Assembly (NCBI GenBank): GCA_026026165.1
Contig: JAPEUD010000001.1
Coordinates: forward strand, 434,001 to 498,000
Reading direction: 5' to 3'
Source: Sarea resinae
Lineage: Eukaryota
DNA: 64,000 nt
Below the pieces are notes generated by a model that was not told the DNA's origin, searched no databases, and worked only from the letters and a program-made list of their open reading frames with translations. Position 1 is the first letter of the stretch; each line of letters opens with the position of its first letter. Below, in pieces: positions 30,405-36,641 of the stretch. The translations under genes were made by a program, and so were the position numbers.

Positions 30405-32710
30405 CGCCCATGCAATTCGTCGTTATCAACACTTTCCCGTCCCGTCCATCTTTCGTTGGTTGCCTGAGGTATTCGTCCCGGACGCGCACACACATCCCAC
30501 ATCCCACATCCCTCTTCTCCTTCCCCGCACGGAATGCTGCGCTCGGCATCAGATTCGAGGGTGAGATTCATCTTTTGCGTCGAGACCTAGATCGATCCGA
30601 CGCAGCTCTCATGCGGGACGCACACAAACATCCAGGATGCACGCGTACACCGCTTCTTCCCGTCGCCTCTCCCCCTCGTCCTTTGCCCGCATTTCGTTTC
30701 GTTTCGTCTCAGGACACGGCACAGCAGGGCTGAAAGGCTGATGGCTGCGCCTCCCTTCATCCCTACAGTACCTTCTTCCGTCCCGCCCAAGCTTCGCCAG
30801 TACTACTGCGCAGTACGAAGTAGTGATAGTAGTCTCCGTCCATTTCGTATCTTTCGCAATTCGGTAATATCCCGCAATGGATCATTCATAGGGCGTAACG
30901 TACCGGGTTTAATTGAGTTTGGGGTTGTGAGTCACCCACTACTGTTTACTACTCCACCACTATTTACGGATACTTCTCCACCATCCATCTTATTATTCAC
31001 TACCGATTCCTACTCTGAGTACATGAAAATGGCTCCCCGCGCACCGATCGACTCCTAGTACTCCGTAAAAACTTGCGTACTCATTTAAATGATGAAGCGA
31101 GAGACCGCATGGTACCTAGCGCAATAATAATAATGTCCCGACCTTTAGTGGTTGCTTTTTGCTCCCCCGCTCCCCCCGCGCTTTCCGTCCCCCTGGGCGG
31201 ACTTCTCCCTGGATGGCGGGAAATGCATACCTTACTCTGGAGAAAAGCTCGGCAGACTCCATACCATAAGGTACCCATCGCAAATATCAGATTGATTATC
31301 AAATATTGGTACCGTAGCAGTGAGGCCCGAGCATCCATTGATCTTTCTATCAAAGGTATCTTATCTTGCCAGTCTTAAACGCTTAGGGGATTCAATCACT
31401 CGTCAGGAAAATCATCTCAGGTCATCTGCGAGGCGGGCGATTCACTGAGCTCTCTAAAACATCTCACACCAGCTACCATCAACCTTGGAGAGCCTGAATG
31501 CACAAATTTCCACCAGTGGCACAAGAAGCCAACGCGGAGGAAATGCGGTGCTCTCTCTCACGCGATGCCTGTGCGTTCAGAAGACGGTGCTTGCATCTCT
31601 CAACTGACGTTGACCGGCCTTCTCACGAGTCAAAGAGAGCGACGCTCCCTCAGCCCTTCATCACTTAACATTAGCTCCAGGTGTTCTACTATCCGCTCCG
31701 ACACCTTTCCACGTCGATTCGTGCTTCTCTAGAGACCAATCTTCTTCCACACTCAGCTCTTGGTATCAGCTAGCCATGCCAATGGGATCGTGTCGATGTC
31801 TATATTTGATATCCCTAGCTCGATAACCTAACGTAGATGTAAGAAACGACGATGAGAGCGAGAACGAAAAACCTATCAAGCGGACGGACAGACAGGATCG
31901 AGGTCTAGGTGGCACTATATTTAGAATTCTCGTGATGGTGCTGTTAGGAACGCCGACTCGACGAGGACGTCGTGATCCTGCTCCTTATTGAGGTGTACCA
32001 GCTGATTCACGGTGGCCATACGTGATCGCTGCCCGCCCACCTTCAATGACGGCAAATGCTTAAACCACCACGGCTGCGTGGCGGACTGTGTTATATATAT
32101 ATCGAATACTCGAACAATAAGCTCAAGTATCATCCCCTGTAGAATTTACGAGACCCTCTGCCAAGAAGTATCCGAAGAGACGCTACTCGGCCATCCTAGT
32201 GCAGTGCGGAAACTTTTGGGAGCCGCGACTCGCGAGAACGGAAAACGGGGAAATCGCAGGTTCAATAAGTTAAATTATATATAGGGAACCTTCCAATAGA
32301 AGCAGGCCATGTATATTTTGCCCCCGTTAGGCCCCTTCGTGGAGATGCTGTAGATTGAAGCTGTCGATGGAATTAAATATGAAAGAAAAGGCGATTAGGA
32401 CACAGAACGAGGAACAAAGGAAGAAACGAGCTGGCGCTTGCATGATTTTCGCTTTGGCCCATCCCACTTTGATGGAACCCCCCCAAAGATACACAATAGA
32501 ATACCAGGTTCCGCCCGCTTGCGTGCTTATTTGCTTGCTCGCTCATGAGAATGCTGATAACATAGAACAGGTCAGATAGATTGGGGAAATGAAAACACAC
32601 GGCCTCAATCCGAGGCTCATGTTCAACTCATTATGATGATGATTTGCAGAGCTTATAGAGGAAGAGCCCATGCCATGATCAGATGCAAATAGTGATCGCC
32701 CATCGACCAC

Positions 32711-33934
32711 TCAGCGCAAGCCAATCACGCTCTGCGATCCACGGTTAGCACAAGCTTGGATCTGAGTGAATAATCCGGTAAACTCACCATCTCCAACGTC
32801 CAGACTCTTCTAATCCAAACCTTTAACTTGCCCTCTACTCCCTCGACATCATGTAGCTCAACTCCTTCCCACCAGCATCGTCTGGCCGGTTTCCGCCAGA
32901 AAAGCAAGAGCTTTTGGGCCATACCAACCACGTTGCTATTGCTGATGTCGTTGCCTTTGACGTCTGTTCGTAGACGAGCCAATGCTAGACTGCAGATGAC
33001 AGCTTTGTTAGGTTCGCCGGCTCGATGACCCCAGCGGTCGTCGTGGTTAAATCCACTGCATCTTGATTAATTTCCCTCTATTCCGGAAAGTGAAGATGGC
33101 ACTTACCCAGCGGTCAACATCTCAATGAGATGTTGTTCGGTCGTGCCCGTCTCCTCGCTTTTTCTCAAACCAGAAAATATGCCGTCTTGCCTCAAAAGTG
33201 CTCTGCCTGCCGCTCTCTTAACTTCAATCATCTCTGGCTGTTCGATATCGGCTTTGGGGGGTATCGCATAAAAATCCAAGTCCTCTCTCAGCACGATAAT
33301 ACCGGCACGGTCTTGCAGCATGTCCCTCGCCGATCCCGGCATCGGCTCGATGGGTATAGCATTGGGATCGGGCGTGCCAGTCGGAGAGGGCGATCCGGAC
33401 GGTATACTTTGTGCAACGTTGCGGAAGAATTCGAGCATGTACTGAAGAGAAGCAGGATCATACTGAGAGTAATAAATTAGATCCGAAATATGTAAATCAG
33501 GATTGCTTAAGATATTCCTTGACCATTCGGCCGAACATACATCAACTGGGTATATATCTCCTTCCTGGTAGGAATTGGTATGGCCATCAGGTAATAGCCC
33601 ATTTGGGAACAGTGATAGCAAAACAAATTCGGGTAGAGTCAGTAATTCGTCTCTAGACAGAGTGAAGCGTGTGCCTCTGCGATCGAAAACTCATTAGTAA
33701 AATGCTCTCTTGAAGTAAGCGTGTAGCGAGGACTTTACCGGAGGTCAAGCGTTATGTTCTCATCCGCACCGACATCTGCAATGAAGCTCGTGTTAGCTTT
33801 TCTGCACCCAAAGGAGGACGTTCGTAGAGCGCCTTGCGCTCTCATAGAGACATACCTCCTAGTGTGTTGATCGGCGGGCCAGCTCCCTGGGATACTTGTG
33901 TGATGATACTCGCCGCACCACCTGCCGCCGCCAT
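32711..33934 (-). CDS. whi2: Whi2 stress/nutrient response regulator (BTB/POZ-like), AUG-initiated form (exons 33934-33856, 33775-33739, 33676-33541, 33462-33107, 33055-32788, 32731-32711)
   Basis: MAAAGGAASIITQV, ITLDLRGTRFTLSRDELLTLPEFVLLSLFPNG, IIVLREDLDFYAIP, EQHLIEMLTAGGF and KLLLFWRKPARRCWW...VWIRRVWTLEMSVIGLR. All five introns are GT-AG and keep the frame. Confidence 0.9.
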
Positions 33935-34427
33935 CACGTATGTGAATGCCTCTAATGGACTCGAGCCCTCGGTATAAGGAGGGGGAGGCTCTCCGTCGTC
34001 TACTCCTTTATGCGGATGGACGCCTTTGTTGTCCGCGGGTAATGCTGCCTTTGTCTCTGCCGCGGCCGAAGAAGATTCCTCAAAAGGCGGTGCAGGGGCG
34101 AATACTGACAGGGAGGCCGAGTCTGCGCCAGTGACGTTGGCTTCGTAAGCGTCGCTATCCCGCTCCGAGGGGAAGTAGAGAGACGAAAATGGAGGTGGGC
34201 GAGGCGAAGGCGGAGGAGAGGAAGACGAGGAGGCCCCCGAGGTTGAGGATGGAGGAGGGAGAGGAGGAGGCGGTGCGGTGTAAGAGCTGTCGTCCACTTT
34301 GCACGCAAGTCTCGAGGAAGTGCGAGAGAGCGTGACGGGTGGCTGGTACGGCGACGCCGTGGTTGGATTATCGTCGAGGCGACACCCTGACGCTCGACGA
34401 CGCTGAAGCAGTTGGAGGAGTGCGATG

Positions 34428-34515
34428 TTAGGACCGCTGTCGAGATGTAGATGGAGATGTCATGCGAGTCGCGTCACAATGGCGATCGCTTGGGCAACGA
34501 GGAGGGAGGTCTCAT
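34428..34515 (-). promoter_or_regulatory. Two candidate uORFs upstream of whi2 (34515-34474, MRPPSSLPKRSPL*; 34463-34428, MTSPSTSRQRS*)
   Basis: These are the nearest upstream AUGs on the minus strand. Both close quickly and are out of frame with whi2. Whether they are in the transcript is unknown. Confidence 0.45.
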
Positions 34516-35303
34516 TCGCCTTTGATGGCCGGAGAACAAGGCAAGGTCGGTCGATGAGCACCGGCAATTGATCGAAAGCTGGACGTGTCAAGATTCAAAG
34601 AGGATGGGTTCGTGATGGGATCACGGTTTCTTCGGCGAGACGAGGTGCGTTGAGCTGTCGGGGGAGATGTTTGGTGTTTCGAGATGGCCGACTGACTGCC
34701 CGTGGAGTTTGAATCCAATGAGCAGTGAGCGAGTGCGAGCTGCGAGGTCCGGCTGCGACCACGGCAAGAACCGCCACGCTACTTGGGTTTGGTGTGACGA
34801 GCCCGCATGGATGGAAGTATCCCTGCAGTACCGCCTCTCCCCTCCGAGGTTCCTTGCTGGGTAATGCATCAACATGCACTGGATGTGTACTCGTCGAGTA
34901 CTTCGCACACGGTTGATTGTCCACCTCGCGCACCTCGATTTGACCGTATCTCCATGTAAGGTGACAGCCGCGCACAGAGCATCAAGTACCTACCGAGTAC
35001 CAGAGTCAGGTAGGCAGCTTCACGTCTGACCGCCTCTTCAGATGTCCACGTCTCCATCGTGATGTCTTCGTACACCGTAGCCATGATCACAGATAAGATA
35101 AGATCACTGCCCATCCATCACCACTCAGTTACCCTGCACCGCGGCCACAACAACTGCATTGCGCCCTGAGCTGGTACAGATCGGATCCAATATCTCGTAC
35201 TATTCCATTAATTGCTGCTTGTGGACACGGCGTGCTTCCTTCCCTATTACCTTATTCACCACCGTAAATCCATGACTGCGAGCCATTCGCAACCTATTCA
35301 ACC

Positions 35304-36641
35304 ATGGTAAGCAGACTCGCGGACTTTGCGCCCTTACCCGTTTTAAGAGCTGACACAAACCCTTCCTCCTCTACAGGCTCAAGTCATATCGAATTCCGGC
35401 CACGAAGAGATGATTGTACGTTTCCTCCCCGTTATCGTCCTCAGAGCACCGTCATCGCAGCTGCATTGTCGCATCAATCTTCTCACCCTTGATCAGAAGC
35501 CAGCAGCTAATTGTCTCTCTGCTGCCTTGCGTTCGCGACCGATAGCACGACGCGGTTTTAGATTATTATGGAAGACGGCTGGCGACATGCTCGTCGGACA
35601 AGACGATCAAGATCTTCGAGGTGGAGGGAGATTCACATCGATTGATTGAGACGCTCAAGGGGTAAATCATTCCACCGCTGCCCTCTCTGCAAGAGCTTCT
35701 TGCTGAACATAACTAACGGAATTCCACAGTCACGAAGGCGCAGTCTGGTGCGTCTCGTGGGTCAGTAAACCATTGCCCTCCCACCTGAACCGCACACTGA
35801 CAGTCAAAGGCCCACCCGAAATATGGCAATATTCTCGCCTCGGCCTCGTTTGACGGCAAAGTCTTCATCTGGCGCGAACAAGCCGGCGCCTGGCAAAAGG
35901 TCTTCGAACACGCGCTGCACACCGCGTCCGTCAACAGCGTATCGTGGGCGCCGCATGAACTGGGCTGTCTCCTTGCCTGCGCCTCCTCGGACGGCAGTAT
36001 CAGCGTCCTCGAATTTGCCAACAATAGCTGGTCCCACAAGATCTTCCCCGCGCACGGAATCGGCGCCAATGCCGTCTCCTGGGCCCCTGCCACGAGTCCG
36101 GGTAGCCTGGTGAGTAGCGCCACAAACACCAACGCTGCTGGAGCGGGCAAAGAGCGTGAACGAAGATTCGTGAGCGGTGGAAGTGATAATCTGGTTAAGA
36201 TCTGGGAGTGGAAGTACGTCTCCAAAACCCCCACCAACCCTAATACCCCTGTCTCCCTATGCAGAAAAGAAAAAGTCAGGATCGAAACGCCCCTAACAGA
36301 CTTTCAACTGCCCTAGTCCCGAAGCACACACCTACACGCCGGTGCAGACCCTCTCAGGCCACACAGACTGGGTACGCGACGTCTCCTGGGCGCCCACGAT
36401 CCTCAGCAAATCCTACATCGCCTCGGCCTCGCAAGACAAGACGGTGCGCATCTGGACGACGGACCCGTCGCGCCCGGGCGAATGGAGCAGCACCGTGCTG
36501 AACTTTGAGTCGGTCGTGTGGCGCGTCAGTTGGAGCCTGAGCGGGAACGTGTTGGCGGTCAGCGGGGACGAGAGCAAGGTCAGCCTGTGGAAGGAGAATC
36601 TCAGGGGCGTGTGGGAGTGCGTTAAGAGTATTGAGGAATGA
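35304..36641 (+). CDS. sec13: Sec13 WD40 protein (COPII / nucleoporin / SEA complex); exons 35304-35306, 35377-35415, 35546-35661, 35730-35760, 35810-36213, 36317-36641
   Basis: [60 protein letters not shown] and [26 protein letters not shown]. Confidence 0.95.

Follow-up and report, generated by a model that had tools for sequence, protein, structure and literature searches.

The region examined here is a window of 64,000 nucleotides (nt) from Sarea resinae (assembly GCA_026026165.1, contig JAPEUD010000001.1, positions 434,001 to 498,000 of the forward strand), in which the gene whi2 lies on the reverse strand and its reading frame continues upstream of the first AUG as a long open frame free of ATG codons. 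A preliminary description of this DNA had taken the upstream frame to be a probable non-AUG-initiated N-terminal extension of Whi2 carrying a PPPY motif. The principal features of the locus, with the evidence for each in brackets, are:

32711..33931, reverse strand: remainder of whi2, with its coding exons and short introns, ending at the stop codon TGA at 32713-32711 (sequence; database protein P0001; RNA contig)
33932..33934, reverse strand: first AUG, start of the short Whi2 core of about 294-300 amino acids (aa) (alignment column of the relatives)
33935..34459, reverse strand: ATG-free open frame of 175 codons, in frame with the first whi2 AUG (listing of open reading frames (ORFs) and codon scan; protein conservation in relatives)
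33974..33988, reverse strand: PPPPY, a PPxY (PY) motif 13 codons upstream of the AUG (translation)
34169..34195, reverse strand: PPFSSLYFP, the most conserved motif of the extension ((nearly) invariant columns P64-L70 of alignment A1)

The ORF of the window was found to be 50-68% identical to hundreds of Pezizomycotina proteins, and its identity as Whi2 was taken from the source names of the homologues (E-values down to 1e-47), which include 'general stress response protein Whi2', 'WHI2-like protein P4H10.16c', and 'BTB/POZ fold'. Pfam returned no family at E <= 1, BTB/POZ included, for P0001, P0003, and P0125 or for the exons of the window. Published work on filamentous fungi, PMC4184795 and PMC8295519 included, describes Whi2 as a restrainer of TORC1 and as necessary to cell fusion, conidiation, and plant infection; for the MoWhi2 protein of Magnaporthe oryzae (MGG_11241), binding to the Psr1-type phosphatase MoPsr1 and restraint of TORC1 have been reported (PMC8295519). 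In the passages available, the WHI-2 protein of Neurospora crassa (NCU10518) has 298 aa and a mass of 32.2 kDa when counted from its AUG (PMC4184795); the 294-300-aa core of the relatives corresponds to this protein, and both of these Whi2 proteins were described from the AUG onward (PMC4184795, PMC8295519).

The open frame before whi2

A stop-to-stop ORF of 205 aa (33842..34459, reverse strand) was found in the ORF listing of the window to span ATG 33934. Upstream of this ATG the frame is open for 175 codons, or 525 nt (34459 to 33935, reverse strand), its 5′ limit is the TGA at 34462-34460, and no ATG is present in any frame of this stretch; what had been said earlier of a 525-nt open whi2 frame free of ATG in every frame was thus borne out by the ORF listing and the codon scan. 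The likelihood of such a frame by chance was estimated within the window by 20,000 mononucleotide shuffles of the 525 nt, of which 0.85% had no ATG, 1.1% left the frame open, and 0.025% did both, and among 726 blocks of this length from the two strands of the window, 2 were free of ATG. Taken alone, the window is suggestive only of a non-chance origin of the ATG-free frame and is not decisive, because other ATG-free runs of 630, 616, 562, 522, and 519 nt occur in it and speak against giving the single sequence more weight. With the comparative data added, however, the sequences indicate that the open ATG-free frame is far more than chance. Protein conservation was found from about KVDDSSYTAPPP onward, and the conserved N-terminal extension comprises at least ~34312 to 33935 (reverse strand).

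Conservation of the extension and of its probable start codon

At the protein level, conservation of the extension was found across Lecanoro-, Eurotio-, Dothideo-, Leotio-, and Sordariomycetes. Homologues of the extension-bearing window ORF numbered 342 database proteins at E <= 1e-3, and a query of the Leotio-/Sordariomycete type recovered 520 at E <= 1e-5. In an alignment of 113 homologues with the window, the motifs PPFSSLYFP, AETKAALP.DTKG, and DDGEPPP(P/A)Y(T/S)EGSSPL.SFTY(V/L) were strongly kept just before an invariant Met. The PPPY motif that had been pointed out in the window is present at 33974-33988, and a PPxY was found no more than 30 residues before this anchor Met in 213 of 222 homologues (PPAY in 119, PPPY in 94, none in 9), with a second PPxY further up in 89 of the 222, often in Leotio- and Sordariomycetes (lineages assigned by reading). 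Across 218 database proteins, the 120 residues that precede the anchor Met, 26,160 residues in all, contained 18 Met. Judged from these protein sequences, a conserved coding stretch of about 120-150 codons precedes the first whi2 AUG across filamentous ascomycetes.

The DNA of relatives was examined for ATG content and coding constraint. A metagenome scan yielded 80 loci, or 81 sequences with the window, and the PPxY-to-Met anchor was located in 69 of the 81, corresponding to 55 non-redundant groups. An ATG was present at the core-start column in all 55, in a context with G (42), C (12), or A (1) at -3 and with G at +4 in 53. In nearly all loci complete at the 5′ end, the frame upstream of this AUG was open for 123-257 codons, and an in-frame ATG was absent from the upstream open frame of 53 of the 55 groups; the two exceptions were L056, which is aberrant, and the L028 group, whose ATG lies 244 codons upstream, well outside the conserved part. 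The interval from the near-cognate codon to the AUG held 3 ATG in 15,953 nt (37 loci), where 148.5 ± 11.3 were expected from mononucleotide shuffles and 62.3 ± 6.2 from codon shuffles, the latter counting out-of-frame ATG only. Per 100 nt, sequence downstream of the AUG held 2.07 ATG, the 100 nt preceding the near-cognate codon 0.44, and sequence more than 400 nt upstream 2.2-2.7. On this sequence evidence, the depletion of ATG from all frames is the mark of a scanned leader, unlike an ordinary AUG-started coding region. The same extension behaves as protein-coding sequence: the proportion of nonsynonymous differences (pN) was below that of synonymous differences (pS) in 666 of 666 pairs of extensions, which indicates purifying selection, the ratio of nonsynonymous to synonymous rates (dN/dS) had a median of 0.24 (336 pairs with finite dS), and identity at the three codon positions was 0.65, 0.70, and 0.35. 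For pairs of the window with a relative, the medians were 0.351 for pN and 0.777 for pS.

Near-cognate Leu codons were also found to be avoided inside the extension (37 loci). CTG made up 0.51% of the codons of the extension compared with 5.0% in the Leu-rich conserved blocks of the core, and among Leu codons it was counted in 27 of 288 in the extension compared with 112 of 498 in the core. Two causes may be considered for this avoidance: selection against starts inside a scanned leader, or the C-rich, G-poor composition of the region (C 36.5%, G 22.1%).

The 5′ edge of protein conservation in the relatives was found to be an (I/V/G)(T/K)LS motif, at which a near-cognate codon recurs. In the 43 groups aligned at the start column, the codon was TTG in 33, CTG in 3, CTC in 3, TCG in 2, TTA in 1, and TCC in 1, and the base at -3 was A in 30 and G in 11, a purine therefore in 41 of 43. 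Three other conserved Leu columns of the same alignment held no TTG and a single CTG among 143 codons, and TTG accounted for 36 of the 288 Leu codons across the whole extension. An in-frame stop was located 5-11 codons upstream of the start column in L040, L051, L077, L012, L033, and L027, and L040 and L051 have no other near-cognate codon in common within that short interval from stop to start. Among groups outside the start column, an NTG with a purine at -3 was found by eye at the 5′ edge, including (i) aaaTTGg in L026, L037, and L054; (ii) acgGTGg or aacGTGg in L045, L022, L064, and L062; (iii) aaaGTGt in L075; and (iv) aaaCTGt in L031. A second site, CCN-A(C/T)C-ACG-GCG-TTG, was found ~10 codons further on in Eurotiomycete-like loci; in L018, L032, and L077 the first site is absent from the open frame and the second ACG/TTG site alone is kept. 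Purifying selection (pN below pS in 666/666 pairs), depletion of AUG (3 ATG in 15,953 nt), and conserved near-cognate codons at the 5′ edge (TTG in 33/43, CTG in 3/43), for which the preliminary description had suggested a comparison across Pezizomycotina, were thus all found there.

In five contigs from the scan (L001-L005), 294-300 aa can be read without a break between the AUG and the conserved C-terminus, and these contigs appear to derive from spliced RNA, because they are intron-free where the genomic loci need introns. The leaders of these contigs, 384-817 nt in length, contain no in-frame ATG, and the extension is contiguous with both leader and AUG. An in-frame stop lies upstream of the extension in L001, L002, L003, and L005, and the ATGs upstream of the TTG open only short, out-of-frame upstream ORFs (uORFs). 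L003 and L004 were observed to be nearly identical from PFSSLFF on, with L003 diverging upstream of this point and having an in-frame stop 89 codons before the AUG; the divergence could stem from an alternative transcript, from different splicing inside the extension, or from a chimera in the assembly.

The surroundings of the conserved TTG gave some further observations. In many relatives a short uORF of 2-14 codons has its ATG ~90-140 nt upstream of the TTG, while the 65-90 nt directly before the TTG are free of ATG; such upstream ATGs lie inside the contigs L001, L002, and L005, which resemble complementary DNA (cDNA). The recurrent uORF could be a conserved regulatory element, or it may do no more than show the point at which selection against ATG sets in. 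With RNAalifold, 32 sequences gave no consensus pairs downstream of the TTG. The codons for D-G-S-S-V, ~33-47 nt past the TTG (alignment A2), often read GACGG-N5-CCGT, a possible hairpin of 4-5 bp, and L068 has an apparent compensatory variant, TGCGG...CCGCA; the pattern may be codon conservation only.

Proposed initiation and candidate starts in the window

We consider the 5′ region to be a real, translated, AUG-less N-terminal extension of Whi2 with a non-AUG start, such that a long and a short protein would be made from one mRNA; on the sequence evidence we give this reading a probability of about 0.75. Non-AUG initiation of the PPxY-bearing extension is well supported by the comparison for the family and probable for Sarea resinae, and we infer from the same alignments that initiation occurs at the near-cognate codons, that two isoforms are produced, and that a start of this kind is used in Sarea resinae. 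In the mechanism proposed, the 5′ edge of the extension would present scanning ribosomes with at least one near-cognate codon in good context. A minority would initiate there and produce a long Whi2 with a disordered tail of ~120-150 residues carrying PPFSSLYFP, AETKAALP, and PPxY, while most would scan past, through a leader kept AUG-free in every frame, and the majority would start at the invariant AUG 33934 to give the core protein of ~300 aa. In most Pezizomycotina ribosomes would start at the conserved UUG, or in some cases at CUG or GUG, preceded at -3 by a purine that is mostly A, and Eurotiomycete-like lineages would have ACC-ACG-GCG-UUG as a second start site. In the window the first site would survive as the out-of-frame GTG 34385, and the long form would most likely come from ACG 34360 or, alternatively, from GTG 34297. 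Leaky scanning had already been suggested for this locus; the lack of ATG in all frames and the invariant AUG (55/55) fit it. The features of the window that bear on this start, and two uORFs, are:

34295..34297, reverse strand: GTG in strong context, second candidate start, giving an extension of 121 codons (context; 5′ edge of clear homology in the Whi2 frame)
34331..34333, reverse strand: ACG in weaker context, minor candidate start (codon scan)
34358..34360, reverse strand: ACG in optimal context, best candidate start of the long form, giving an extension of 142 codons (context; match to the second site)
34368..34370, reverse strand: TAA closing the frame of GTG 34385 five codons on (reading of the sequence; translation of the alternative frame)
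34383..34385, reverse strand: GTG-TCG, probable counterpart of the TTG-TCG start of the family, one base out of frame with AUG 33934 (nucleotide profile; pairwise DNA alignments)
34428..34463, reverse strand: second short uORF of 11 codons, whose ATG overlaps the TGA that closes the Whi2 frame (codon scan; uORFs of the relatives)
34474..34515, reverse strand: short uORF of 13 codons, 130 nt upstream of GTG 34385, which may lie in the 5′ leader (codon scan; uORFs of the relatives)

The near-cognate codons first listed for this frame were correct, contexts included, on the codon scan: ATC 34426 (cctaacATCgca), CTG 34411 (ctccaaCTGctt), ACG 34360 (optimal context, ccaaccACGgcg), and GTG 34297 (strong context, tgcaaaGTGgac), all on the reverse strand. 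ACG 34333 (reverse strand, cccgtcACGctc) is a further in-frame near-cognate codon that was absent from that list. Of the codons listed, ACG 34360 is favored by a weak homology to the second site, whereas ATC 34426 and CTG 34411 are without comparative support. A nucleotide profile of the start region built from 35 loci had its best match in the 64-kb window at 34390-34329 (reverse strand, E 0.023), and in five of eight pairwise DNA alignments the NTG of the relative was placed on 34385-34383; GTG-TCG at 34385-34380 thus seems, tentatively, to be the counterpart of the TTG-TCG of the family. In the Whi2 frame, 34366-34349 (reverse strand) was found to match the second conserved site, CCN-A(C/T)C-ACG-GCG-TTG, of two Eurotiomycete-like loci. 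The alignment of L005 with the window at this site scored 44, above all 200 shuffles (25.2 ± 4.0, maximum 38), while that of L080 scored 38, inside its own shuffle range (maximum 49), and an nhmmer profile of the second site ranked this match first in the window at E 0.7, which is not significant alone. If correct, the second-site match may put ACG 34360 of the window on the conserved ACG.

At the protein level, homology in the Whi2 frame of the window starts at about KVDDSSY, near GTG 34297. Hidden Markov models (HMMs) of the TLS...PPFSS and PTTAL...PPFSS regions gave no significant match in the three frames of the window, and for this reason the question of frame further upstream is addressed by weak DNA-level matches only; tblastn of the relatives' N-termini against the window returned marginal matches in the alternative frame, with E of 0.019 and 0.15. 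In our reading, an indel between the two sites, its length no multiple of three, would have uncoupled the first start, either in the lineage or in the assembly. Because the GTG 34385 counterpart is out of frame and closed by a TAA, ACG 34360 (142 codons) is considered the likeliest start here, with GTG 34297 (121 codons) next, a choice that we would make at roughly even odds. All of the candidate starts in the window retain the conserved motifs of the extension. Two other proposals were set aside. A PVTLS of the window, with the CTC that comes directly after ACG 34333 in the TTG column, had been placed by protein alignment and was rejected as a chance match of four residues, the DNA profile pointing elsewhere. 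The five-codon frame of GTG 34385 closes with CGA-CGA (34371-34376, reverse strand), a strongly stalling codon pair in yeast, and the TAA; a +1 ribosomal frameshift at CGA-CGA-TAA that would join GTG 34385 to the Whi2 frame was considered; it was dropped, as the relatives are without such a site and nothing beyond the codon pair speaks for it.

An exon with a normal AUG might instead be spliced onto the extension from upstream, either from ATG 35084, as in P0001, or, in a variant, onto a CTAAC...CAG acceptor at 34403. P0001, a database protein of 449 aa from a metagenome-assembled genome (MAG) of Sarea resinae that is 100% identical to the window ORF over the 72% covered, comes from a gene model built in this way, with its Met from ATG 35084 and a predicted intron of ~700 nt ending just before GTG 34297. 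A scan of the window likewise gave 22 stop-free combinations of an ATG, a GTRNGY donor, and a YAG acceptor, with donors at 34993, 34975, 34933, and 34910, second exons starting at 34402, 34386, and 34342, and a CTRAY branch-like site before the acceptors at 34402 and 34386, and this counts against a non-AUG start here. Splicing of an AUG exon would, however, need introns of 508-607 nt, whereas the RNA-confirmed whi2 intron, the last one of the gene, is 56 nt (an RNA contig joins 32731 to 32788; a second joint skips 58 nt in a contig that is <90% identical and probably from a relative). In addition, the putative exon-1 peptide of P0001 matches none of the N-termini of the relatives, the extension is contiguous with the leader in the five spliced cDNA-like contigs, with upstream in-frame stops in four and no AUG, and a protein started at AUG would leave the depletion of ATG in all frames and the conserved TTG without a reason. 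An AUG-bearing spliced exon, the case that the preliminary description had raised against itself, thus fails in the relatives, as judged from five intron-free contigs, while the sequence of the window allows the 22 hypothetical splicings; overall we regard it as very unlikely.

Other observations also weigh against a long isoform, in part for the window and in part for the family. The main start codon of the family is not in frame in the window, where GTG 34385 is followed by the TAA after five codons; each homology placement in the window is a weak one (E of 0.023 and 0.7); and the N-terminal TLS...DGSSV motif was not recognizable by protein HMM in any frame of the window. The extension may thus be shortened or partly decayed in the Sarea lineage. 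For N. crassa, the available passages of the report give a size 'very close' to the predicted 32.2 kDa of the AUG form for a WHI-2 that carried an internal hemagglutinin (HA) tag and was driven by its native promoter (PMC4184795), and the extension was seen in other Sordariales, with N. crassa itself outside that comparison. Furthermore, the sequences counted are phylogenetically related, and the raw numbers given above overstate their independence; the cDNA nature of L001-L005 is read from the absence of introns only; and the single RNA run found for the window (a metatranscriptome, 5% of words) gave contigs that cover 32600-33821 only. The out-of-frame GTG 34385 with its TAA, the unrecognized TLS...DGSSV motif, and the size seen in N. 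crassa could be accommodated if the long isoform were lost or a relic in the Sarea lineage, its start uncoupled by a frameshift and a stop, with the AUG form alone being made and the open frame inherited. We think this unlikely, as the 175 codons still hold neither an in-frame stop nor an ATG (a joint chance of 0.025% in the shuffles), PPFSSLYFP, AETKAALP, and PPPPY are all intact downstream, and pN remains below pS in the comparisons of the window with relatives (medians 0.351 and 0.777). ACG 34360 and GTG 34297 remain in frame in optimal context, and L018, L032, and L077, which are also without the first site, keep the second ACG/TTG site. As for N. crassa, a long form, if existing, is probably minor; the size reported there fits leaky scanning with a dominant AUG form and also means that a long form was not noticed. 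An HA-tagged copy of WHI-2 with ~1,500 bp of upstream sequence complemented the N. crassa mutant, as stated in the passages available (PMC4184795).

The out-of-frame GTG and the TAA may also be assembly errors, the real GTG 34385 being in frame and starting the extension. The source record bears the label of a MAG, the best profile match in the window is the one that sets GTG 34385 on the TTG of the family, and in our reading of the L005 alignment one indel of ~11 nt near 34367-34371 would explain both the change of frame and the TAA. The site, however, contains no long homopolymer of the indel-prone kind, and other lineages are naturally without the first site, which leaves an assembly error highly improbable. 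Initiation at a near-cognate codon within the open frame, with ACG 34360 ahead of GTG 34297, is the reading that we retain as probable for the window.

Related systems, possible role, and neighboring genes

Yeast ALA1 (ACG-ACG) and HFA1 (AUU) are dual-isoform genes with non-AUG upstream starts. As proposed for Whi2, one mRNA gives a long form from a weak upstream near-cognate start and a short form from a downstream AUG, with an AUG-free interval between the two. The extensions of ALA1 and HFA1 are short to medium mitochondrial presequences, whereas the 120-150 conserved residues of the Whi2 extension probably form a disordered tail that carries linear motifs, PPxY among them, and no sign of a targeting signal was noticed there. 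A closer likeness is found in cpc-1 (CPC1) of Pezizomycotina, for which near-cognate-initiated N-terminal extensions have been described (Ivanov et al. 2017, mBio, PMC5487733). In the passages available of that report, cpc-1, a gene from the same subphylum, has an in-frame extension upstream of its main AUG (~180 residues, without an in-frame stop and kept as well as the main ORF), and its near-cognate codons, with A at -3 and so close to the optimal context, are deeply conserved. The Whi2 case resembles it in these points. The two differ in that (i) the cpc-1 leader holds two AUG uORFs that are bypassed by the extension, while the Whi2 leader between near-cognate codon and AUG is almost free of ATG in all frames; (ii) the conserved codons of cpc-1 are ACG, AUU, and CUG, while that of Whi2 is mainly UUG; and (iii) initiation in cpc-1 was shown in vitro and by ribosome profiling, while the Whi2 case is known here from sequence alone. 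No report of an extension or a non-AUG start in Whi2 was found in the literature on Whi2, non-AUG initiation, or N-terminal extensions in filamentous fungi, as represented by the passages available, those of PMC5487733 and PMC7498311 included (the supplements of PMC5487733, which might bear on this, lay outside the search). The class of mechanism is thus a known one, with cpc-1 of the same fungi as its closest member, and the Whi2 case would be a new one, with an unusually clean signature in that one UUG is conserved and the leader contains almost no AUG.

With regard to function, PPxY is a classic ligand of the WW domains of Rsp5/Nedd4-family ubiquitin ligases. The PY-motif partners of these ligases, such as the arrestin-related adaptors, carry PPxY in an apparently unstructured segment, as Whi2 does; unlike them, Whi2 is not known to be an Rsp5 partner. 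Among the literature matches listed for both terms, as judged from titles and the first lines of abstracts, no interaction of Whi2 with Rsp5 was reported. An AlphaFold2 model on alignment A1 had a mean predicted local distance difference test score (pLDDT) of 51 and a predicted template modeling score (pTM) of 0.32, showed the extension without secondary structure, and was too poor for a fold search; it is compatible with a disordered tail bearing linear motifs and proves nothing. By analogy, the PPxY of the extension might recruit Rsp5/HulA, and the ratio of the isoforms might respond to how stringently start codons are chosen. In a broader form of this idea, which we offer as doubtful, Whi2 mRNAs would for >300 million years have given two proteoforms, a minor UUG- or ACG-initiated long form whose disordered tail engages Rsp5/HulA via PPxY and a major AUG-initiated short form without that tail. 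Near-cognate initiation would vary with start-codon stringency and the condition of the initiation machinery, and through the ratio of the two forms the activity or stability of this restrainer of TORC1 would directly report translational status, with the uORF ~100 nt upstream acting as a further tuner.

If the non-AUG start is real, constructs, tags, and complementation designs built from the AUG may miss a conserved functional module. Whi2 would then stand with cpc-1 as the second deeply conserved near-cognate-initiated regulator in the nutrient-signaling network of Pezizomycotina, which would strengthen the idea that start-codon stringency is a regulatory input in these fungi. The conserved TTG offers a clean single-codon handle for tests in N. 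crassa or Aspergillus nidulans. If a third of Whi2 has been missed, a large fraction of genomes have an incorrect gene model at this locus.

Among database models across Pezizomycotina, hundreds of whi2 models were observed to be fused to the upstream neighbor, to have invented 5′ exons, or to be partial, and the cause appears to be the requirement of gene callers for an ATG. Of the 120 best matches to the window ORF, 59 were at least 700 aa in length, and these we read as fusions with neighboring genes; many of the 120 show Pfam domains that belong to other genes, ABC-F among them, and several bear the flag 'partial'. In Dothideomycetes the neighbors include an ABC-F gene, in Eurotiomycetes one whose product is called dipeptidyl-peptidase III by several sources, and in Sordariomycetes a G-patch gene. 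In the window, the gene upstream of whi2 is a divergent ORF with WD40 repeats (35801-36316, forward strand), which we take to resemble a Sec13-type protein. The intergenic region of ~1.2 kb between whi2 and this ORF must hold both promoters as well as the putative exon 1 of P0001.

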